Source of the DNA: Candidatus Azambacteria bacterium
GTDB taxonomy: Bacteria; Patescibacteriota; Minisyncoccia; GWC2-36-17; WO2-46-25
Direction of reading: 5' to 3'
DNA length: 35,817 nucleotides
NCBI GenBank assembly: GCA_024654415.1
Contig: JANLHQ010000011.1
Location: 1-35,817 of the forward strand
Numbering within the stretch: the stretch's first letter is position 1; every line of letters starts with the position of its first letter. The notes below the pieces were generated by a model that was not told the DNA's origin, searched no databases, and saw only the letters and a program-made list of their open reading frames with translations. Of this stretch, positions 8,322 through 18,644 are shown in pieces. The translations under genes and the position numbers were made by a program.

Positions 8322-8345
8322 AAAAATCCCCGTTTGGGGATTTTT
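8322..8345 (-). terminator. strong hairpin terminator between a structured GC-rich spacer and the M23-like gene
   Basis: AAAAATCCCC (8322-8331) / GGGGATTTTT (8336-8345) with a 4-nt loop, and T-runs in both orientations. Confidence 0.7.
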
Positions 8346-8353
8346 ATGTTTTG

Positions 8354-8500
8354 GCTCGCCCTACTCAAGGACTTTCGAACTTTGGATTGGGCAGAGGAGT
8401 ATAAATATCCGACCGTGATCCTCTCCCAAATGAAACAGTTACTAGCCGAACATCAGGAGGGATAACCCCGATTTGCCAGCTGTTTGCCCTTGTGGCGAGC
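8354..8500 (-). ncRNA. candidate structured RNA / cis-regulatory leader (unclassified)
   Basis: A 7-bp closing helix (GCTCGCC 8500-8494 with GGCGAGC 8360-8354 on the minus strand) encloses a 9-bp bulged hairpin (8389-8398 / 8419-8427). The region is locally GC-rich in an AT-rich setting and is followed immediately by the terminator at 8322-8345. No known RNA family recognised by eye. Confidence 0.25.
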
Positions 8501-8503
8501 TTT

Positions 8504-8548
8504 GTCCCACGAACCCACGCTTGTCACCAATTGCCACCAGTACCCACC
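8504..8548. repeat. five phased ~10-nt degenerate repeats ending in CCCAC(C)
   Basis: GTCCCAC / GAACCCAC / GCTTGTCACC / AATTGCCACC / AGTACCCACC read consecutively on the + strand. Confidence 0.5.
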
Positions 8549-8609
8549 GGTTTGACCAAAATTTCGCCTCTAAAACGATTTACTTAACTTAAGCAAATGT
8601 TAAGCCAGT

Positions 8610-10088
8610 TTACATTACAAGCTCCTGATATCGCGCTTCGAGAAAGTCATTGATACCGTGAATGTCTTTTTTATTCCGTAAATTCAATAACTGTTTTATG
8701 TCCTTATCATCAAGAGCAATTATTCGGCCCCTACCGTCGTTCGCAGTATCTTTGCACCTCTTAATAAAGAGTTGCTTGTTCTTAAACGTACGACAAATAA
8801 GAAAACCAAACTGGCCTCGATTAGTAGAAAAACGTCCTGACAGTTGGTCAAGCTCTGGGTTGGCTGGGTCGCTTGAATAATTCTTGCATTCTACAAAAAC
8901 ATATCCTGACGGGACACTTTTAGTATTTGGGAGGTCAAAGAAAAAGCCATCGTGAGCCGCATTTTGGAAAGTAACATCAATTCTTTTTCTCCCCTCGTGT
9001 ATTTCATGTTCCTTTTTTGGATTAATAAGGTAAGGATAAAAAATTGCTGTTAATACACCAGTTATGTGATCGTGAAATTTCTTTGCGTTTTCATCGCCGG
9101 CTGGTATTGCACCAAGTTCACTAGCCAATGAATTGTAATCAAATTTTGACTCCTCAGCCTGACCAAAAGCAAACATGAGCAAGTCCTCGACAGTTATTTC
9201 ATTTAGGGAATAATTTTTACTTTTCTTATAATTTTTTAGAACCTCTGGATGTGCTTTAGAAAACTCATATAGATATGGCTTCGACAATGGATTTAGCTCT
9301 TTGAGTGCTTTTTTGAAAGGTGGGCGTCTCGTCCCATCTTTTAATGTTCTCACTAAAGATGAGTTCGCGTCTAAATGTTCTGATTGTAAAAAATTTAATA
9401 CAAAATGCTGATAGTATTCTTGATGGTTAAATTCTATTCCAAACCTAGCAATAGCCTTGGGTACGAGAATGACGCTGTGATTTTTGCAGACAGGTAAGTT
9501 AATATACTCGCTCGTCCATTTTTTATTTTCATTGTCCCAGATGGGGCCACTCGGAACAGAAACCATTGATATGCCCCAAAGCTCACATTGGGCTTGAGTG
9601 TATTCAACCAATTTATGGCGAATAATATTTGTTGAAATATCTGAAATCTTATCTCGGCTAATACCCTCAATTAGAAGCTCGCATTCTTCCAGGTCCTTAA
9701 TAAAACCCGTCTTAACGGCTGTGCTATCCGCAAGTGCTTTATATAAATCTTCCGCTTGCTCACCACCAACGCCCCTGCCTCGCGGATTTTCTCCTTTAGA
9801 AAGTCCGAATCTGGTCTGGTTCGGCTCTCTTAATCCAGACAGCATGTATTTAGCTTGCGGTTCATTACCTTCTCGAATCTGATCAATAACACCTTGAAAA
9901 AATTCGACAATGGCATTATGACAGTCAGTCGACCAATAATCACTTCTTTTTGAAACAGCATATGGGTCAATAAACAAAGGGATGTCCCCGTTGTTAATAG
10001 GGACATCCACAAAATCAAGCTCGTATTGGCTTTTATTCAAGCGGAAATATTCAGAAAATGTCTGCGCCATTATAATTTTCATATTCAT
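8610..10088 (-). CDS. 492-aa protein: unknown N-terminal ~370 aa plus a C-terminal PD-(D/E)xK (Mrr-cat/restriction-endonuclease-like) domain
   Basis: C-terminus reads EIHEGRKRIDVTFQN...GYVFVECKNY...GQFGFLICRT, i.e. the E/D...D...E-x-K arrangement of restriction-endonuclease-fold nucleases. The N-terminal part matches nothing I recognise. Confidence 0.55.
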   Translation of the reverse strand: MNMKIIMAQTFSEYFRLNKSQYELDFVDVPINNGDIPLFIDPYAVSKRSDYWSTDCHNAIVEFFQGVIDQIREGNEPQAKYMLSGLREPNQTRFGLSKGENPRGRGVGGEQAEDLYKALADSTAVKTGFIKDLEECELLIEGISRDKISDISTNIIRHKLVEYTQAQCELWGISMVSVPSGPIWDNENKKWTSEYINLPVCKNHSVILVPKAIARFGIEFNHQEYYQHFVLNFLQSEHLDANSSLVRTLKDGTRRPPFKKALKELNPLSKPYLYEFSKAHPEVLKNYKKSKNYSLNEITVEDLLMFAFGQAEESKFDYNSLASELGAIPAGDENAKKFHDHITGVLTAIFYPYLINPKKEHEIHEGRKRIDVTFQNAAHDGFFFDLPNTKSVPSGYVFVECKNYSSDPANPELDQLSGRFSTNRGQFGFLICRTFKNKQLFIKRCKDTANDGRGRIIALDDKDIKQLLNLRNKKDIHGINDFLEARYQELVM

Positions 10089-10122
10089 TTTTCATATTCA
10101 TCTCTTGATTATCAACTCCGGC

Positions 10123-10659
10123 TTACGATCCTTGCATTAAAGAAATAAGACTATTCAATTCCGGTACGTTAGCACGTTGTGTATCAAGGGTTGCTTTTGG
10201 AAAAAACTTATCATATTCACCGAGCTCAGTCCGTTTTTTCTTATTCAAATAATTGGATTCAAACTCACTTTTGCACCATGCTGAAGTCTTGCCGGAAAAA
10301 GATTGTCCGGGCCTCAAAATTGCGAGTAATATTGCCTCTAAGCAGGGGGAATTTTCGAGCAGTTCAATTCCTTGCTGTTTTGCTTCCGTTCGCGCCTGAT
10401 TCATTTCCTGCTCACCTTTGTCATTATCCAAAATCACGATTTTCCGATCAAACGCACCCGGCTCATTTACGGCATTAGTGATTATGTTTGTTGCTGTGCC
10501 ACCTTTGCCATTACGGATTGTTACAGCGACTCCGCTGTCTCGAGAGTATAATCCGCGCAAATGCTTTAGGAACATCTCCTCACCAAGCCCTTCTCCATAC
10601 ATCAGCAAGGTTCGGCTGGCACTACGACGTTTTTTCTTGTAAGGATTTGTCCGTGACAT
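10123..10659 (-). CDS. small Toprim-like protein (RloB / DUF4276-like)
   Basis: 178 aa. LLMYGEGLGEEMFLKHL (conserved E-G..E near the N-terminus) plus KIVILDNDKG (DxD) give a Toprim-type acidic signature. Its size and position directly downstream of an ABC-type ATPase fit RloB-like partners. Confidence 0.55.
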   Translation of the reverse strand: MSRTNPYKKKRRSASRTLLMYGEGLGEEMFLKHLRGLYSRDSGVAVTIRNGKGGTATNIITNAVNEPGAFDRKIVILDNDKGEQEMNQARTEAKQQGIELLENSPCLEAILLAILRPGQSFSGKTSAWCKSEFESNYLNKKKRTELGEYDKFFPKATLDTQRANVPELNSLISLMQGS

Positions 10660-10670
10660 GATTTTCTATG

Positions 10671-11879
10671 TTAAATCTTCGGAACAGCTCCATACGCCCC
10701 GGCGATATATTTTGAATAATAATTATCATCAGAACGTACATCAGATACCTCATCTAAGCGCCATGCCTCGCTTATACCGTTCTCATTCTTTTCGACCAAT
10801 ACAATTTGATACTTATCTAACTTACTTAAGAGCATATGACTATGGGTACTTAAGAGAAGCTGTGCGTTTTTAGGATTCGTCTCCGGCTGTATAAACAAGT
10901 CAAACAACGCCATAACCATTTCAGGGTGTAGATTTACATCAAATTCGTCAACAATAGCAATACTTCCTTTTTCAAGGGCCGCAAGAATACTCTTCAAAAG
11001 TACAAACAATTGCTTTGTTCCAAATGACTCATATTGAACAGGTAGATACAACGTCTGCCCATTAAACATGTGGGATGCTCGGACATTAAGAGAAAAACCG
11101 TTTTCCTTTTTTTCTTTTTTTATCTCAAATCCACTTAGTCCCAAGTCAAATCGGCAAAGCAATTTTTCTGCTTCCTGTTTAAGAGCACTGTTTTCACTAA
11201 AGAAATCAAAAGCTTCGCCAAGTTGTGCGATTGAATTTGGTAGCAAATGGTCTCCGATCCAACCAGCCTCAATGACATTTGTTTCTATTTGTCCCCAATA
11301 TGTTGCTATCGTTTGACTTTCCGCATGATTAAGTCGAGCGGCAGTACCAATAACGCTCGCATTAGAACGCAAAAGATTTTCAAACCCTTTTGGCAAATCA
11401 AAATTATCTCCCTCAAAATCATATCGATTTTCTTTCACATTCCAGTTTCGAGAAAAAATCTTCTTGGTAGATTTTTTCTCTTTTGCAAAACTAGTGAGCT
11501 TTAGATCTTCGCTTAGAATCTTTTCTTTGGTGATAGTAAAAGCATAGGTATACACTTTTCCATCGACCTCAAAAACCACCGATAAGTCTGTCGGCTCATT
11601 CTTTTCGTCCCCAAACGCAAACGGCTGAACGACAATAGGATTCTCTGGCTTCATATTGAACGAATCAATAATCAACCATTTCAAAAACGGTAAAACTTTT
11701 AGCAAATTTGTTTTACCGGATGCGTTAGGTCCTATAACTGTTTCGACCTTCGAGAGTCGTACACCTGACTTGGCTACAAAATAGCCATTATTCTCTGGGG
11801 CATTACCATTTACCTCGAAAACAAGCGATGTTTCCTCACCAAAGGAATAGAAGTTTTTACATGAAATTGAATGAATCAT
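10671..11879 (-). CDS. ABC/SMC-like AAA ATPase (AAA_15/AAA_21, COG1106-type)
   Basis: Walker A GPNASGKT, signature-like ESFGTKQ, Walker B IAIVDEFDVNLHP, H-loop LSTHS, and a long helical insert between Walker A and the signature. Confidence 0.8.
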   Translation of the reverse strand: MIHSISCKNFYSFGEETSLVFEVNGNAPENNGYFVAKSGVRLSKVETVIGPNASGKTNLLKVLPFLKWLIIDSFNMKPENPIVVQPFAFGDEKNEPTDLSVVFEVDGKVYTYAFTITKEKILSEDLKLTSFAKEKKSTKKIFSRNWNVKENRYDFEGDNFDLPKGFENLLRSNASVIGTAARLNHAESQTIATYWGQIETNVIEAGWIGDHLLPNSIAQLGEAFDFFSENSALKQEAEKLLCRFDLGLSGFEIKKEKKENGFSLNVRASHMFNGQTLYLPVQYESFGTKQLFVLLKSILAALEKGSIAIVDEFDVNLHPEMVMALFDLFIQPETNPKNAQLLLSTHSHMLLSKLDKYQIVLVEKNENGISEAWRLDEVSDVRSDDNYYSKYIAGAYGAVPKI

Positions 11880-11918
11880 ATTTTTATATGTTTTACCTTT
11901 ATTACCTCGACCTATCTC

Positions 11919-11947
11919 ATACTAGCAGATAATAGATAGAATTGCAA
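11919..11947 (-). promoter_or_regulatory. sigma-70-like promoter of the ATPase cassette
   Basis: On the minus strand: TTGCAA (11947-11942), 17-nt spacer, TAGTAT (11924-11919), about 40 nt upstream of ATG 11879. Confidence 0.5.
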
Positions 11948-11951
11948 GCTT

Positions 11952-11971
11952 TTCTACAATAATTTGTAGAA
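11952..11971. promoter_or_regulatory. perfect 8-4-8 palindrome abutting the -35 box (operator-like)
   Basis: TTCTACAA-TAAT-TTGTAGAA, located 5 nt upstream of the -35 hexamer of the ATPase promoter. Confidence 0.45.
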
Positions 11972-12053
11972 AGTGGAGAAATATAGGTATTTTCAAGCTA
12001 TTTTACCTCCTCGGACTAGCCTGATTCTTAAGTTATACACACCCCTATAAGAT

Positions 12054-13037
12054 TCAGCTTTCTAATGCCCTGATTATTTCTTTGGTAACATGCCACATAA
12101 CGACGGGTGCGACAGCATTTCCCAAAGCTTTATAATTCGTCGTTCGTGATCCGGGAAGCACAAAAGAATCCGGAAAAGATTGTATGCGAGCTACCTCAAG
12201 GGGGGTGAACATTCTATACCTGCCATTTACCTGCAAAACCGGGTCGGTGCTGTTTAAGCTTACTTTTGCAAGATGTGCTCCGACTGTATTGCTTGGTTCA
12301 TGTAATTTTTGCACCCGGCCCTTGTTCATGGTCTTTGAGTGTTTGGTTGCGGACATACCGTTGACAGCTTTTGCGCTGAAATAAAATTTTTCCTCGACTT
12401 CATGGTTGGGTAAAACAATCATAGAAAGTGGCACCGGATTGCTTTCGGTTACCGGCTTTGGAAATTCGAAGCGGTCATACGTTTTCTTATTCTTGAATCC
12501 TACAATAAACACACGTTCGCGTTTTTGCGGAACGCCGTAATGGGAAGCATTCAGAACCTTATATTTGATATGATAGCCAGCTCGCTCGAATTCTTTTATG
12601 ATTAGCGGAAAAGCTTCTCCTTTGTTAGCCGACAGTAATCCTTTCACATTCTCGGCTACGAATACGGACGGTTTTTTGTCTTTAAGAATCCTGCACATTT
12701 CGAAAAACAATTTTCCTCTATCATCTTTATATCCGAGGCGGCGAGGATTCTGCGCCACTACCGAAAAAGATTGGCAAGGAAACCCTCCGGTCAAAATATC
12801 GTGATCTGGAACATCTTTTGATTTCAGTTCTTTTATATCTCTTACATCAATTTTCAGTGAAAAATTCGCATTATAAACATCGCATATCGATTTATCGAAA
12901 TCCGTGGCATAAACTGTTTCCACCGGATGTTTTTTAAATCTTTTGCCCAAGTACGCGAAGCCGCCCTCCGCCCCTAGGTCCATCCCTCCGCATCCACTAA
13001 ACAAGGAAACTATTTTGTATTTTTTGGTTATTTTCAT
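12054..13037 (-). CDS. DNA (cytosine-5)-methyltransferase
   Basis: Motif I LFSGCGGMDLG, motif IV GGFPCQSFS, motif VI ENVKGLL, motif VIII QKRERVFIVG, motif X GNAVAPVV. The start overlaps the upstream stop (ATGA, 13034-13037). Confidence 0.9.
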   Translation of the reverse strand: MKITKKYKIVSLFSGCGGMDLGAEGGFAYLGKRFKKHPVETVYATDFDKSICDVYNANFSLKIDVRDIKELKSKDVPDHDILTGGFPCQSFSVVAQNPRRLGYKDDRGKLFFEMCRILKDKKPSVFVAENVKGLLSANKGEAFPLIIKEFERAGYHIKYKVLNASHYGVPQKRERVFIVGFKNKKTYDRFEFPKPVTESNPVPLSMIVLPNHEVEEKFYFSAKAVNGMSATKHSKTMNKGRVQKLHEPSNTVGAHLAKVSLNSTDPVLQVNGRYRMFTPLEVARIQSFPDSFVLPGSRTTNYKALGNAVAPVVMWHVTKEIIRALES

Positions 13038-14464
13038 ACGAGTAATTTCTCCCAGTATCCTGATTTATCTGAGTACCTGATATCCGCTCCGTCACGTGGA
13101 CTCATATCTAGCGTGTCAGATTTGTATTGGCCAACAGGATCTTGGATCAGGAACAGATTTACATCCTTGGACGAAATCATTAATCTATAAACAAAGTAGG
13201 TTTTTCTCAAACTATTGGCCGCACTCCATTCGCTCGGCGTCATATGAAAGTTACTCGTCGCGAGCTTGCCTCGACTGATGCTTGTCTTGACCTCGACATA
13301 CCTGCGAATATCACCGATTCCTTCGAAAGACGAAATATCATATCCGACTGCGAATGTCTCCGGAATTTTCTTTATAAGATGCAATAAGTCTTCGCGCTTA
13401 AGCGTTACCATCCTGATTTTCTCGTGTTCGATCACGATTGCTTCACCTACATCTCCCACCTCTTTGGTTTTTACTTGTTCACCCTCTCTGATCATCTGCA
13501 CTTTCATCAAAACTTCTTTAATGAATGCGCTCGTATCCCTATCTTCAGTGGTTTCGCTGGCTTCTTCGATAATTGAAAGGATGTTTGCTTCAAAGATACT
13601 TGAATCAAGCTTGTTGTTTACATGATGGAACCAATCTTGCTGAGTGGATACCACGTCAGCGAGTGATAGATCGCTCTTGGTGTACAAGGGCTGATAGGGT
13701 GCGAAATATGAGCCGTCGTTGATAAAAGCCTGTATCGTTTCAAGATTTACCGTGTTTAAATAATACTGATAGTTCTGCCTAAGTCTTACCAGATCGGCGA
13801 GCTCCATGTAATCGAGCACATCTCCTGCATAGCGGATAACATCTCCTTGAGAATCATATTCAATATCGTTTTTCCTGTTGGCCAAGATAAGCTCCGCTGT
13901 TTCCTTCGGAGAACGATTGTCCCTTGTAACCCTTAAGTCGTTAAAAATACAGTGGGTGGTTTCAGCTTTCGTCAAACCAAATTTTTCCGACTCGCCGACC
14001 AGTTTCTTGCCTTCAAGCATTACCTGCATAAGATATTTTGCCGGCTTGAATCTAATGCCGGCTTTTATGCATTCAAGAGTTTCGTGGGGTTTCAAATGAC
14101 CTCCGGGATACTGGAAGTAGAAAAGAAAATATCGAAAAAATTCAATAAGGTCCTGCGATTCTGAAAGCAGAAGAGCCATGCGTCCAGGTTGGGATATATC
14201 CCCGTCGTGTTCGATCAGCCCGAATAAGGACGAAATCTCAGTACGCCAATTATTGATTGTCTTTAATTCTTTTGAAAAATTGCCGGGGTAGAACTTGATG
14301 GTGTTATTTAATTTCTGCTTGAAAGTTTCGTGTTCCTCTGGCTTGAGCTTTGCAATTTCTGTCGCCATATAGAAAAGCACGTTCTCGACATCGTTTTTGA
14401 AACGAGGACGGATGTGATGTAGTCTGAAAAAATATTCTTTTGGTGTTTTGTAAATACTTTTCAT
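13034..14464 (-). CDS. putative restriction endonuclease (N-terminal recognition region plus C-terminal PD-(D/E)xK / DUF3883-like domain)
   Basis: Sandwiched between two m5C MTase genes with 4-nt ATGA overlaps on both sides. The C-terminal GYDISS...RYVEVKTS...FHMTPSEW...YFVYRL matches the D...E-V-K nuclease pattern of DUF3883-type domains. Confidence 0.6.
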   Translation of the reverse strand: MKSIYKTPKEYFFRLHHIRPRFKNDVENVLFYMATEIAKLKPEEHETFKQKLNNTIKFYPGNFSKELKTINNWRTEISSLFGLIEHDGDISQPGRMALLLSESQDLIEFFRYFLFYFQYPGGHLKPHETLECIKAGIRFKPAKYLMQVMLEGKKLVGESEKFGLTKAETTHCIFNDLRVTRDNRSPKETAELILANRKNDIEYDSQGDVIRYAGDVLDYMELADLVRLRQNYQYYLNTVNLETIQAFINDGSYFAPYQPLYTKSDLSLADVVSTQQDWFHHVNNKLDSSIFEANILSIIEEASETTEDRDTSAFIKEVLMKVQMIREGEQVKTKEVGDVGEAIVIEHEKIRMVTLKREDLLHLIKKIPETFAVGYDISSFEGIGDIRRYVEVKTSISRGKLATSNFHMTPSEWSAANSLRKTYFVYRLMISSKDVNLFLIQDPVGQYKSDTLDMSPRDGADIRYSDKSGYWEKLLV

Positions 14465-15513
14465 ATCTTTTTATTTAAAGCTTTAGCCAGGGCTTTCGCT
14501 ATCTGTTCTGCCATAAGCGGCGGAACCGCGTTTCCAACTTGCTTGTATTGGCTGGTTTTGGAACCCATGAACACGAAATCATCGGGGAATGATTGCAGTC
14601 TAGCAGACTCCCTAACCGTGGGTATCCGGTTCCATTTGTAATGGAAATGGTGCCTATGTCCGGTATCGATGGTAAAGCTTGGTTTGTTACTGCTGTATCG
14701 GGTCCAAGCTATATTGACACGGCGGGTATTTTTTAGATGATCCGGCAAATCTTTGTAATTGCCCCCGTCAGGCACAAGCGCAATGATGTCTGTTGTTTTT
14801 TGATCATGATTTGTTATCTCATGGTTAAAAATTTTATTAGACTTTTTTCTCATTTTCGCCTGATAATCCGAAACTGGTTTTTTCTTATTCTCTGTTCCAT
14901 CCTTAACTGATCCTTCGGGAAGATCGGAAATAGCCTGTCCTGCGGTTGCTTTAGATTCAGGATCCGAAAAGGTTGGTTCGGGGAAAATAAAGCTGTTATG
15001 ACCAAGGGTTCCCACAAATACGACACGCCTGCGGTTTTGCGGAACGCCGTAATCAGAAGCTAGCATGACTTTGTATTTGACCTCATAGCCAAGAGCTGTG
15101 AAATCCTTCAGGATTTTATTCTTTATTTTGCCGCCAGACATCGCTACAAGATTCGGAACATTCTCAAGGACGAATGCCTTCGGTCTCAACTGCTTCACTG
15201 TTTTAACAAAGCTGGTATAGAGTCCGTTACGAGGGTCATTTGGATTCCTTTTCCCTGAAATTGAAAATCCTTGACATGGTGGTCCACCGACCACTACATC
15301 GATTTTGCCAGTAATTTTTTCTAAATTCTTGGGATCGAAGTTTCCTAAATCCATCAGAATGCCTTTTGATCCGGGATGATTCCTCTCAAAAGTTATAAGT
15401 GAGTCTTTCCAGTTATCTATTCCTGCTACCACGTCAAAACCAGCTCGTACAAAACCGTAGGAAAGACCACCACAACCTGAAAATAGATCTAGAACTTTTA
15501 ATTTATTCTTCAT
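14461..15513 (-). CDS. DNA (cytosine-5)-methyltransferase
   Basis: Motif I LFSGCGGLSYGF, motif IV GGPPCQGFS, motif VI ENVPNLV, motif VIII QNRRRVVFVG, motif X GNAVPPLMA. Confidence 0.9.
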   Translation of the reverse strand: MKNKLKVLDLFSGCGGLSYGFVRAGFDVVAGIDNWKDSLITFERNHPGSKGILMDLGNFDPKNLEKITGKIDVVVGGPPCQGFSISGKRNPNDPRNGLYTSFVKTVKQLRPKAFVLENVPNLVAMSGGKIKNKILKDFTALGYEVKYKVMLASDYGVPQNRRRVVFVGTLGHNSFIFPEPTFSDPESKATAGQAISDLPEGSVKDGTENKKKPVSDYQAKMRKKSNKIFNHEITNHDQKTTDIIALVPDGGNYKDLPDHLKNTRRVNIAWTRYSSNKPSFTIDTGHRHHFHYKWNRIPTVRESARLQSFPDDFVFMGSKTSQYKQVGNAVPPLMAEQIAKALAKALNKKI

Positions 15514-16165
15514 GTGTGTGCAACGTTACTTCCTTAAAGCCGCTTTGGGTAATAATTACATGGCCTGACAATCGGAATCCTAATATGTTTGCCGCCTCCA
15601 ATAATTGCCAAGTAATTTTTTTATCTTCGGCCGATGGTTCAAGGCTCCCGGAAGGGTGATTATGTGCAATTGTGATTGATGATGCTGAAAGCGAAATCGC
15701 TGGTTCAAATATCTCGCGTGGGTGGACAAGACTGGAGTTGAGAGTCCCGATAGAAATGATGCGTCTTTCAATGATTTTATTTTTCGTGTCTAGATAAAAA
15801 ACGGCCAAATGTTCCTTTTTGGAATCATAAAAATCAGCGCACAGTTTCCAGATGTCTTCAGGGGATTGGACTACGATGCCTTTCTTCTCATTCAGTCGGC
15901 CACTTAGCTCAATTAAAGCTAATATCTGGGAAATCTTAGCTCGACCTAGGCCATGTATTTTTTTAAAGTCACCTCTTGAAATATTTGCCGATCCCATACT
16001 CTCTATTTTGCGTAAAATCTCTCGACTCAAAGCTAAAACATTTTTTCCTTTAATGCCTGAGCCAAGAAGGATCGCCAAAAGTTCCGAATCAGAAAGCCGC
16101 ATCGGTCCGTATTTTTCGAGTTTTTCTCGCGGTCTATCAACTTTTGGTAAATCTTTTATTTTCAT
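15503..16165 (-). CDS. radC: RadC-like JAB/MPN-domain protein (UPF0758)
   Basis: N-terminal RPREKL..YG...LSDSELLAILLGSG plus an HhH region. JAMM motif HNHPSGSLEPSAED. The stop overlaps the MTase start by 11 nt. Confidence 0.85.
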   Translation of the reverse strand: MKIKDLPKVDRPREKLEKYGPMRLSDSELLAILLGSGIKGKNVLALSREILRKIESMGSANISRGDFKKIHGLGRAKISQILALIELSGRLNEKKGIVVQSPEDIWKLCADFYDSKKEHLAVFYLDTKNKIIERRIISIGTLNSSLVHPREIFEPAISLSASSITIAHNHPSGSLEPSAEDKKITWQLLEAANILGFRLSGHVIITQSGFKEVTLHTHEE

Positions 16166-16360: not shown

Positions 16361-17422
16361 TTATAGTTTTCTATAGCTTGTTGATCGGCCTTGCCCAATG
16401 CGCTCAATCTTTTTGAGTCGCATCAATTTATCGATTGCCTGCCTGACAGTCGGATAAGCGACTTTCGTCTGTTCGGAAATCTCACGCGGCGTAGCACTTT
16501 CAACTTTTTGGAGATAATTCCAAACAGCGAGCTGTTTTTGTGTGAGCAATCGTTCAATATTTTCTTTGGACAAAAGATCGATGGCCATCTCCGATTGTTT
16601 TAAGAAAATGGTCAAGAAGAAATCCAACCACGGAATGATGGTTTCATGATCTGTCTTAAATGTTTTTTGGCTCTGACGAAGCACAAGATAATAATCTGGC
16701 TTATTATCTTCAACAAATTTCTCATGCGAAACATAGGGCATATACAAGTATCCCTCTTTCAATAAAAGAAGGTTAGTGAGTACGCGGCTAAGACGGCCGT
16801 TGCCGTCTTGAAATGGATGGATCTGCAAAAATTCAACAAGAAAGTTGCCCACAATAAGAAGTGGATGATAACTCTTCTCTTCAAGAGCTTTTTGGGTCCA
16901 CTCAACCAATTCCAGCATTTCTTTGGGAGCAAGATATGCCGGCGTGGTGTCAAAAAGCACGCCAATGGATTCTCCGGCGGCGTTTATCATCTGTACCTGA
17001 TTTTCTCTTTTTTTGTAATCGCCTCGATGGCCTTCGTCCTTCTTTACATACTTCAGGAGTTCTTTATGGAAGTGTTTGATAGTGCTTTCATTGAATTTCA
17101 AACTTTTCCAAGAATTAAAAATATTCTCAAGCAATTCGTAATATCCTTTGACTTCCTGTTTGTCCCGATCAGTAAATTTTTGGATATCAATACCCCGCAT
17201 GAGCTTCTCCACATCTTCATCAGAGAGCCTTGCCCCCTCAATACGAGTTGATGCTCCAGTTGAAGTAATCAAAACAGACCGTTTGAGACGACCTAATACC
17301 TGAGACGAGAGTTGTGCTCCGGCGATCCATTGCCCCTTTAACTCATCAATTCTTGCTATTTTTGACCAGATTTCAGCCGGTAAATGCTCTATCCGCTGGT
17401 CTAATTTGATGTTATTTGCCAT
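16361..17422 (-). CDS. Fic-family protein (class II, N-terminal inhibitory helix) with C-terminal winged-helix domain
   Basis: Fic motif HPFQDGNGRLSR. Autoinhibitory (S/T)xxxE(G/N) motif STRIEG in the N-terminal part. The C-terminal LQKVESATPREISEQTKVAYPTVRQAIDKLMRLKKIERIGQGRSTSY is wHTH-like. ATG 17422 is preferred over the TTG at 17443 used in the track. Confidence 0.85.
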   Translation of the reverse strand: MANNIKLDQRIEHLPAEIWSKIARIDELKGQWIAGAQLSSQVLGRLKRSVLITSTGASTRIEGARLSDEDVEKLMRGIDIQKFTDRDKQEVKGYYELLENIFNSWKSLKFNESTIKHFHKELLKYVKKDEGHRGDYKKRENQVQMINAAGESIGVLFDTTPAYLAPKEMLELVEWTQKALEEKSYHPLLIVGNFLVEFLQIHPFQDGNGRLSRVLTNLLLLKEGYLYMPYVSHEKFVEDNKPDYYLVLRQSQKTFKTDHETIIPWLDFFLTIFLKQSEMAIDLLSKENIERLLTQKQLAVWNYLQKVESATPREISEQTKVAYPTVRQAIDKLMRLKKIERIGQGRSTSYRKL

Positions 17423-17593
17423 ATATTTAATCCGATATATCAACTATAGCGGATTATAACGAATAAATCAAACTCGCCGCTTATTATTAGTTAGGCCAAC
17501 AAGTTGTAATAAGGACACCCGTATTACGACTTGGCAACAAAGTAGGCTAGTTTGCTTACATCTGGCAGAGCAATGTAAACAAACTTAAAGAAG

Positions 17594-17712: not shown

Positions 17713-17887
17713 AGTTGTTTAGATAAAAATGATCATGAATATGAAAATGGTCTCAATGGAGACGAGCTACAAATTTGATATTGTTGCAACGAAAGACGCG
17801 GTCCGAGATGCTTTTACAACATTCGAACCGCCAAAAGAGCCCGTCAATAAAGGATTAACACCAGCTTTCGCTGATGTTAATCCTATC

Positions 17888-18037: not shown

Positions 18038-18076
18038 GCTCCGCGGGTAGGATTCGAACCTACGACCAAGCGATTA

Positions 18077-18644
18077 CACTTGTTTGGTAAGTGGACTATA
18101 TCATCTCCTTCTTCGTTAGAAGTTAAGGAGTCGGGCGCTTATGAGAGATTATTGTTGGGACTCACTCTCTAGTCTCTACACCTTCCTTGAAACTAAAACC
18201 CTTCAAGGCTTGGCTCGGTATTAGATTAACTTCTCCTTCACCGAATTCACCCGATTTTTCAATCCTGATTTCTCAGGAAAGCTGCCTGAAGCATGGATCT
18301 CTGCGTGGCAATTGCTACACAAAAGAATACACTTATCTAATTCTTTTCTTACCCTTTCCCAAGATTGTGTATATCCTTTTGACGCAACTCCGAAATCCTT
18401 GCCGCCAGGTTCTTTATGATGAAAAACTAAAGCAGTTTCACATCTATTGTAGCCACATTTCTGACAAGCTCTTCCCTTATATTCAAGAGACATTTTCTTT
18501 ATATCCTTTCGTCTCTTGTCTACAAAGTACTTAAGCTTGCAGTTTACGCTACAGAACCTGCGTCGTGGTTTCATAATAGTGTTAACGCAAACATGATAAT
18601 TACATTTCATGATTACATTATACCCTATTATGAGCCAAACTTTG
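18077..18644 (-). other. group I intron (IC3-like) in the anticodon loop
   Basis: Minus strand contains AATTCGGTGAA, CCGAGCCAAGC (18218-18208) and GAAGGTGTAGAGACTAGA (18185-18168). I recognise these as the conserved P4, P6 and P7 core strings of the Azoarcus and cyanobacterial tRNA introns. The proposed boundaries obey the rules that the 5' exon ends in U and the intron ends in G. Confidence 0.7.
18221..18610 (-). CDS. HNH homing endonuclease encoded within the intron
   Basis: 129 aa starting at ATG 18610 (MKCNYHVC...). Contains CQKCGY...LVFHHKEP...LLCSNCHAEIH, an HNH motif with flanking Cys pairs. The longer track ORF (to 18709) runs through the tRNA 5' exon and is an artefact. Confidence 0.75.
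   Translation of the reverse strand: MKCNYHVCVNTIMKPRRRFCSVNCKLKYFVDKRRKDIKKMSLEYKGRACQKCGYNRCETALVFHHKEPGGKDFGVASKGYTQSWERVRKELDKCILLCSNCHAEIHASGSFPEKSGLKNRVNSVKEKLI

Follow-up and report, generated by a model that had tools for sequence, protein, structure and literature searches.

Three genes stand in a tight row in a genome of the Patescibacteria: do they form a single, undescribed defence system, or are they separate units that happen to lie together? The question is raised by a contig of Candidatus Azambacteria bacterium (GenBank assembly GCA_024654415.1, contig JANLHQ010000011.1, positions 1 to 35,817), and "the window" below means this whole stretch of 35,817 nt. Three open reading frames (ORFs) follow one another on its minus strand, namely gene 1 at 10671-11879 (402 aa), gene 2 at 10123-10659 (178 aa), and gene 3 at 8610-10088 (492 aa). 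A first-pass annotation, made from the letters of the window, had proposed them as an undescribed module in which gene 3 serves an ATPase and Toprim pair as a third component, either sensor or effector. Our analysis gave a different answer: the first two genes match the known two-gene AbiL system, and gene 3 is independent of them and belongs to a family that has already been catalogued. The stretch is thus probably composed of two independent defence units lying end to end in a variable defence island.

The descriptive part of the proposal was borne out. The three genes are co-oriented, with gaps of 11 nt between genes 1 and 2 and 34 nt between genes 2 and 3, and every quoted motif is present in the translations: GPNASGKT, ESFGTKQ, IAIVDEFD, and STHS in gene 1, YGEGLGEE and LDNDK in gene 2, and KEHEIHEGRKRID...VECKNY in gene 3. 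In the database, gene 3 is called from a start two codons further in, which gives a protein of 490 aa. An automatic scan listed no terminator-like sites between the three genes on the minus strand. The first such site 3' of gene 3 is a bidirectional terminator-like hairpin, AAAAATCCCC-GTTT-GGGGATTTTT, at 8322..8345 (no strand assigned), which was read from the sequence and is missing from the list of the automatic scan. Rfam and tRNA scans detected no RNA genes in or adjoining the three genes, and an NCBIfam scan of all three proteins gave no meaningful match. The setting next to restriction-modification (R-M) genes was also correctly described, as the genes occupy a defence island that adjoins an R-M system.

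Gene 1 encodes an AbiLi-type ABC/AAA_21 ATPase, as indicated by PADLOC, Pfam, and its motifs. The match to the PADLOC AbiLi model spans residues 1-402 (4.3e-73), and two Pfam families, AAA_21 (1.4e-27) and AAA_15 (3.9e-14), exceeded their cut-offs. The protein has the Walker A and Walker B, signature, and H-loop motifs, and its earlier reading as an ABC-type ATPase is confirmed by the AAA_21 match. For gene 2, the PADLOC AbiLii model was matched at 5.2e-11, with residues 49-173 aligned to profile positions 4-121 of 125, and PF13707 is annotated on many of its database homologues, one of which is named "RloB domain-containing protein". Residues E23, E27, E28, D78, D80, E85, E102, and E108 were invariant in an alignment of 29 homologues, and this pattern of GEG..EE / DND / E fits a Toprim-type acidic centre. 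Pfam, PADLOC, and the annotation of homologues thereby agree with the Toprim-like character given to gene 2 at first sight, which we describe as an AbiLii/RloB-family Toprim-like protein.

As judged from these profile matches, genes 1 and 2 are a new member, from a Patescibacteria genome, of the known AbiL system. AbiL is described in a 2026 review as a two-component system, consisting of a Rad50/SMC-like ABC ATPase and a TOPRIM/OLD-like protein, and is grouped there with PARIS and RloAB (PMC13064643). Other ATPase-nuclease systems were considered for the pair and rejected. PARIS was set aside because no AriB or DUF4435 model of either PADLOC or Pfam matched gene 2 (E <= 1). Gabija and class 1-2 OLD proteins were set aside because the ATPase and the Toprim-like protein are encoded by separate genes rather than as one polypeptide; the match of GajA to gene 1 is partial (2.3e-9, in the C-terminal part of the ATPase), and no UvrD-like gene adjoins the pair in the window. 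Septu does not fit either, since neither gene 2 nor gene 3 holds an HNH domain and PtuA matches gene 1 at the general level of ATPases (1e-14).

We also noted a conserved feature at the N-terminus of gene 2. Residues 1-18 (window 10606-10659) follow the pattern MSRTNPYKKKRR.A..T and are almost invariant in the 29 homologues, which otherwise diverge to approximately 50% identity. This peptide may act as an arm for DNA binding or mediate an interaction.

Gene 3 is a member of a family that is known both as a domain of unknown function and as a computational defence candidate. It matched the PADLOC model PDC-M36A at 6e-51, mainly over residues 7-235, and a second model at 2.8e-19, and PF28123 (DUF8370) is annotated on all 120 homologues listed. 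For the three genes together, the PADLOC scan thus returned AbiLi, AbiLii, and PDC-M36A. In a Pfam scan with a set that lacks PF28123, the only match to gene 3 was Mrr_cat (E 0.12, 12.9 bits against a cut-off of 21). The family spans many phyla: it forms at least 3393 clusters when grouped at 90% identity and 2177 at 50% identity (E <= 1e-3), and it has 295 confirmed matches in one-genome-per-species contigs. PDC families were predicted because they lie within known defence loci (PMC12881386). Our literature search found no experimental report on PDC-M36 and no paper that names it.

The suffix of PDC-M36A raises the question of a partner. No PDC-M36B match was found for the neighbours scanned in the window, nor does one appear in the 25 families seen most often in 60 tightly linked neighbours of gene-3 relatives. 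The gene 1 ATPase was considered as the missing partner and rejected on three observations: the M36 partner is not among the 25 best PADLOC matches of gene 1, AAA_21 and AAA_15 lie outside the 25 commonest Pfam families of the same 60 neighbours, and a profile hidden Markov model (HMM) of gene 1 found one AbiLi-like ATPase in 94 gene-3 loci.

If the three genes formed one system, they would be expected to recur together, and the neighbourhoods were therefore compared from both sides. From the side of AbiL, we sampled 80 of 113 metagenome matches to gene 1, a number limited by the search patterns; these relatives share 62-98% protein identity with gene 1. Gene 2 directly follows gene 1 in 76 of the 80 loci, mostly within about 20 nt, and the remaining four extend no more than 229 nt beyond gene 1. 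The flanks vary: 55 downstream neighbours fell into 37 clusters and 64 upstream neighbours into 54. The AbiL pair is a self-contained unit of two genes without an obligatory third. In 36 AbiL loci the sequence continues for 2.1 kb or more beyond gene 1, and none of these has a gene-3 relative.

From the side of gene 3, the genome loci comprised 80 of the 295 confirmed matches with 10-kb flanks, again as limited by the search patterns. Searching these 80 loci by phmmer with genes 1 and 2 detected the ATPase in one locus, where it lies 2.8 kb from the gene-3 relative and is split over two frames (L040), and gene 2 in none. Profile HMMs, applied to 94 gene-3 loci, likewise found no AbiLii-like gene and one AbiLi-like ATPase, 2.8 kb away; in these loci, homologues of gene 3 do not recur beside ATPase and Toprim pairs, a recurrence that the proposal had named as a check. 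All-against-all clustering of the neighbours revealed no conserved partner, the best cluster being present in 11 of 80 loci. Integrases and serine recombinases recur among the neighbours, as do type I R-M subunits, a GmrSD/HNH protein, an EcoRI-type methylase, and a Schlafen-type helicase accompanied by MazG. No family of PADLOC or Pfam occurred more than three times within the 60 neighbours that are tightly linked and co-oriented, many of which are components of R-M, HerA, AbiO, Nhi, or MADS systems.

The closest relatives of gene 3 show the same independence. Those at 89% and 83% identity start some 30 nt downstream of Res in a type III R-M system (a Mod-Res pair), and another at 78% identity stands divergently beside an MvaI/BcnI-type R-M system, which indicates that it has its own promoter there. 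Gene 3 is thus independent of genes 1 and 2. Because the pair is the named AbiL system and the relatives of gene 3 occur in unrelated contexts, the three-gene module is refuted on the terms under which it had been put forward.

The DNA itself also breaks between the two parts. In blastn comparisons, AbiL-type loci align to the window from 10075 or 10090 through approximately 12004-12044, many of them ending at approximately 12004, and gene-3-type loci align to 8607-10107, with homology ending at 10101-10107. One AbiL locus (L092) is 93% identical to the window in its AbiL DNA and carries different genes in the slot of gene 3, namely a UvrD-like helicase, a PDDEXK_1 protein, a DUF2726 protein, a TspO-domain protein, and one more ORF. 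Beyond this slot, L092 12338-12588 regains 92% identity with window 8354-8605, a segment of about 250 nt just beyond gene 3.

At the seam lies a tandem repeat, two copies of ATGAATATGAAAA at 10076..10101 on the minus strand, which overlaps the start of gene 3. This 13-mer has three copies in the window (10076-10101 and 17735-17747), compared with 0.3 expected, and a 12-mer of it has 13 copies across 2 Mb of related loci, compared with about 0.4 expected. Of these 13 copies, 11 fall at a gene start, either that of the gene after AbiLii or that of a gene-3 relative: the 12-mer opens a different small gene after AbiLii in seven loci (L094, L107, L126, L129, L132, L133, and L160) and precedes gene 3 in L081-L084. 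The repeat may be a microhomology or junction used for cassette exchange, which we offer purely as a suggestion.

Several further observations concern the DNA around the seam. The segment 8354-8605 contains, on the plus strand, the end of a small ORF (...LALLKDFRTLDWAEEYKYPTVILSQMKQLLAEHQEG), and 15 of its 19 differences from L092 fall at third codon positions; the third-position periodicity runs on past the stop codon, and the segment has no Rfam match. A PDDEXK_1 protein of about 249 aa comes after gene 3 in its closest relatives (L081 9484-10233), and one of similar size is found in the slot replacing gene 3 in L092 (8985-9731). Right after AbiLii, a 72-aa ORF recurs in L094 (4923-5141), L126 (3056-3274), L129 (2215-2433), and L160 (1693-1911); it is truncated in L107, L132, and L133 and absent from the window. 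Its sequence (MNMKTPKYIRNIGKHWSPTEEKKL...RVIGLKLGRPEAGVRGKAHEL...) looks like that of a small Myb/SANT-type DNA-binding protein.

The AbiL cassette appears to carry its own control region. The TTGCAA-17-TAGTAT promoter proposed upstream of gene 1 is present on the minus strand at 11919..11947, with the -35 TTGCAA at 11947-11942, a 17-nt spacer, and the -10 TAGTAT at 11924-11919; a TG one base before the -10 makes it an extended -10 (TGC-TAGTAT). A simple consensus scan did not list this promoter because just 8 of 12 positions match. Alignment of the upstream regions of 63 loci showed that a -35 of TTGCAA or TTGACA and an extended -10 of TGnTAnnAT are conserved at fixed spacing in most of them. 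An A-rich box with two AAAATAnCCT-like repeats, located at 11981..12004 (minus strand) upstream of the inverted repeat described below, is also kept in most of these regions and forms the 5' edge of the cassette.

The 8-4-8 palindrome noticed beside the -35 is real and is contained within a longer 9-4-9 inverted repeat, TTTCTACAA-ATTA-TTGTAGAAA, at 11951..11972 (minus strand), directly 5' of the -35. In the 63 loci, its core ACAA...TTGT is nearly invariant and the outer positions change together on both arms. Pairing between the arms was found in 78.8% of cells, compared with 37-60% when the partner columns were slid, and the covariation score was reached by none of 500 shuffles. These features point to a candidate operator for a dimeric DNA-binding protein. 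We infer that the palindrome probably provides autoregulation by the AbiL proteins in the style of toxin-antitoxin systems, which is the simplest idea because the cassette encodes no separate regulator.

To understand what gene 3 may do, we turned to its predicted structure. The AlphaFold2 (AF2) model, built on an alignment of 56 sequences, had a mean predicted local distance difference test score (pLDDT) of 87.7 and a predicted TM-score (pTM) of 0.88, and divides the protein into an N-terminal domain of about 300 aa and a C-terminal domain of PD-(D/E)xK type (about residues 330-492). The modelled C-terminal third has the strand-helix order of the PD-(D/E)xK core (alpha-beta-beta-beta-alpha-beta), with predicted strands 354-359, 372-376, and 396-402 and flanking helices that fit this core, and D371, E400, and K402 are invariant in the 56 sequences. 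Foldseek searches of the PDB with the whole model gave only weak matches, all to PD-(D/E)xK nucleases, with FokI as the best (E 8e-3, probability 0.72) and N.BspD6I, VC1899, EcoT38I, and Cap4 among the others. Mrr_cat is the commonest weak Pfam hit in the family, with E <= 0.1 in only 5 of 56 homologues. By motif and model, the C-terminus is a predicted nuclease domain of the PD-(D/E)xK superfamily, and the earlier description of gene 3 as such a domain joined to an unplaceable N-terminal region is consistent with both the Pfam scan and Foldseek.

The N-terminal region indeed resisted placement. Its 312 residues, modelled alone, gave a pLDDT of 85.3 and a pTM of 0.81, and Foldseek found no match to this domain in the PDB (best E 0.87) or BFVD (best E 0.19). 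A profile of the gene-3 family gave chance-level matches only against PDB sequences, and an hhalign comparison of the family with the C-terminus of the BpuJI-like enzyme encoded nearby was uninformative. The invariant residues of the domain include D25, D35, D41, E88, D146, K147, S149, and D150 as well as Y163, Q167, C168, W184, and W191.

The N-terminal domain is not tied to one kind of C-terminus. In other DUF8370 proteins, a CHAT domain (Pfam 1.7e-6) comes after it, or else an unrelated segment that is rich in glycine and has a helical, hydrophobic tail, and one full-length relative carries an extra PNP_UDP_1 domain. Small plasmids encode forms of 305-340 aa made up of the N-terminal domain alone. 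These arrangements, in which the domain occurs with other C-terminal regions or alone, point to a modular protein. In 50,697 phage records, no relatives of gene 3 were detected. Among the plasmid forms, one lies on the 4.5-kb Bacillus cereus plasmid pMRY14-0100_7 (L172 2434-3456), and another on the 14-kb Acinetobacter plasmid p3AsACE (L174 5995-6909), beside a helix-turn-helix/ImmA-IrrE pair. Two small hypothetical genes follow the Acinetobacter gene and could be a separately encoded partner.

Membership in two known enzyme types was considered for gene 3. For a type IV (Mrr-like) enzyme, Mrr_cat falls below threshold and the N-terminal domain matches no known reader fold. For a type IIS (FokI-like) enzyme, the TM-score of the whole protein is 0.24, the N-terminal domain alone has no FokI match at E <= 10, and gene-3 relatives have no conserved methyltransferase neighbour. 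Neither assignment was adopted.

Taken together, the locus is best explained by two units. The first, at approximately 10085-12004, would be a self-contained AbiL cassette with its own promoter, a candidate operator, the AbiLi ATPase, and the AbiLii Toprim/OLD-like nuclease. On the model of PARIS and other pairs of an ATPase with a Toprim protein, the ATPase would keep the nuclease inactive and sense infection, and the Toprim protein, once released or activated, would cut nucleic acid and abort the infection. The second, at 8607-10107, would be a single-gene DUF8370/PDC-M36A cassette, placed after AbiL in a slot whose content can be exchanged. Given a gap of 34 nt in which no terminator was seen, gene 3 is probably read through from the AbiL promoter, which would mean shared transcription and not shared function.

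Within gene 3, the N-terminal domain defines the family and most likely serves to recognise the target or trigger, either DNA or a phage cue, and the C-terminal PD-(D/E)xK domain is predicted to cut DNA. The protein may be either a restriction enzyme that depends on DNA modification or a suicide effector. A sensor-effector immune protein would account for the exchange of C-terminal regions, and for the forms with the N-terminal domain only, somewhat better than would a type IV enzyme of the classical kind. It is plausible, and we suggest tentatively, that DUF8370/PDC-M36A proteins are widespread single-protein immune sensors, in which an N-terminal domain of new fold detects a phage cue and drives interchangeable killing domains, namely a PD-(D/E)xK nuclease in the window and, in relatives, other C-terminal regions such as a CHAT protease. 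The copy in the window would then be a working example behind AbiL, possibly profiting from the regulated AbiL promoter.

Somewhat unlikely, but next in standing, is that gene 3 is a stand-alone type IV-like restriction endonuclease, whose N-terminal domain reads a feature of DNA and whose Mrr/FokI-like domain cuts, with no cognate methyltransferase. The lack of a conserved methyltransferase or any other partner beside gene-3 relatives would suit such an enzyme, as would their repeated location within or beside R-M loci and the weak similarity to Mrr_cat and FokI-type proteins; a helix-helix-beta-hairpin at residues 145-198 of the model may also be read as winged-helix-like. However, this N-terminal domain also occurs fused to a CHAT protease or to non-nuclease tails, or stands alone on small plasmids, so that a generic trigger sensor fits better than a reader of DNA modification, and the domain has no fold match to known modification readers.

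There is a smaller chance that gene 3 has no role in defence and is a protein of mobile elements or DNA transactions (for example, a selfish nuclease or an accessory protein of plasmids or integrative and conjugative elements) that piles up in variable islands. Integrases and recombinases are among its commonest neighbours, its plasmid-borne relatives are all annotated as hypothetical, and the defence label of PDC families is itself a prediction from locus embedding (PMC12881386), with no experimental report found for PDC-M36. Yet the tightly linked neighbours are mostly defence genes of R-M, HerA, AbiO, Nhi, MADS, and GmrSD type, the phage records hold no relatives, and the exchange of C-terminal regions is a pattern typical of immune proteins.

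That all three genes form one integrated, undescribed system, with the 492-aa protein as third sensor or effector of the ATPase and Toprim pair, is highly improbable: co-orientation, the short gaps, the single conserved upstream promoter, and the lack of an intervening terminator-like site would favour it, but the linkage is unique to the window (gene 3 in 0/36 AbiL loci with room, and an AbiLii-like gene in 0/94 gene-3 loci), relatives of gene 3 at 78-89% identity lie in R-M contexts, and the DNA ceases to align at the seam between genes 2 and 3, where a near-identical AbiL locus has other genes.

Several points weigh against the interpretation of two independent units, an AbiL pair and a nuclease-bearing gene 3. 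Concerning the pair, gene 2 matched Pfam RloB at 2e-5 with 25.3 bits, under the cut-off of 31.5 bits; the gene-2 family profile gave chance-level matches only against PDB sequences, and an hhalign comparison with the Toprim domain of the window's own DnaG was uninformative. The mechanism is borrowed from PARIS, and the review leaves undecided whether AbiL acts in this way (PMC13064643). Concerning gene 3, the nuclease call draws on the motif together with fold matches that are weak, with TM-scores of about 0.24 and E > 1e-3 throughout, and PADLOC lists the family as a component of a multi-gene candidate (M36A). Both neighbourhood surveys covered a sample of the known loci, and the 34-nt gap without a terminator leaves room for the three proteins to be produced jointly and to interact here.

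The rest of the island lies upstream of AbiL. It comprises two C5 methyltransferases (12054-13037 and 14461-15513) on either side of a BpuJI-like restriction endonuclease whose C-terminus is of NOV_C type (13034-14464), together with RadC (15503-16165) and a Fic/SoFic-like protein (16361-17443), after which come the housekeeping genes rpoD and dnaG. A match to a group I intron (RF00028, 50.1 bits against a gathering score of 50) is located at 18076-18298 on the minus strand, between the Fic gene and rpoD. ARAGORN found no tRNA anywhere in the window.

The proposed three-gene system thus resolves into a known AbiL pair and an unrelated neighbour, and no new kind of system is added. The case also serves as a warning that tight spacing within a defence island need not mean a shared system. 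What remains of interest is the biochemistry of DUF8370 and the conserved candidate operator of this AbiL clade from the Candidate Phyla Radiation (CPR). The conserved promoter and covarying inverted repeat offer a handle on the regulation of ATPase and Toprim systems, and DUF8370, as a large family of many phyla with a confidently modelled N-terminal domain without structural relatives and with exchangeable C-terminal regions, is a reasonable candidate for characterisation.

Finally, we compared both units with known systems. Gene 3 resembles FokI, N.BspD6I, and Mrr-type enzymes in joining a large non-catalytic N-terminal region to a C-terminal PD-(D/E)xK cleavage domain. It differs from them in that it has no linked methyltransferase, its relatives exchange the nuclease for other C-terminal regions, and its N-terminal domain matches neither these enzymes nor anything else. 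Its closest counterpart is component A of PDC-M36, equivalent to DUF8370: beyond the strong profile match, gene 3 has the length typical of the family, about 480 aa, and carries the family's invariant residues.

The pair resembles AbiL of Lactococcus lactis and RloA/RloB in its two-gene operon, in which an ABC/Rad50-like ATPase is followed by a small Toprim/OLD-like protein of the RloB family; both PADLOC models are matched, the pair is kept as a strict unit, and R-M genes adjoin it. In contrast to the lactococcal type, the pair of the window comes from a CPR (Patescibacteria) genome and is hence distant in sequence, and its gene 2 scores below the Pfam RloB cut-off. The promoter with its inverted repeat is kept in the clade of the window, and we met no such description for AbiL, although no search was aimed at it. 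With PARIS (AriA and AriB), the pair shares the combination of an ABC ATPase with a separate Toprim nuclease, and AriA models match gene 1 at 1e-29 and 1e-17; however, gene 2 matches no AriB/DUF4435 model, and for gene 1 the AbiLi model scores far above AriA. The pair is thus not a member of PARIS, but PARIS, in which a sensor/antitoxin ATPase is combined with a released nuclease (PMC13064643), is its likely functional analogy.

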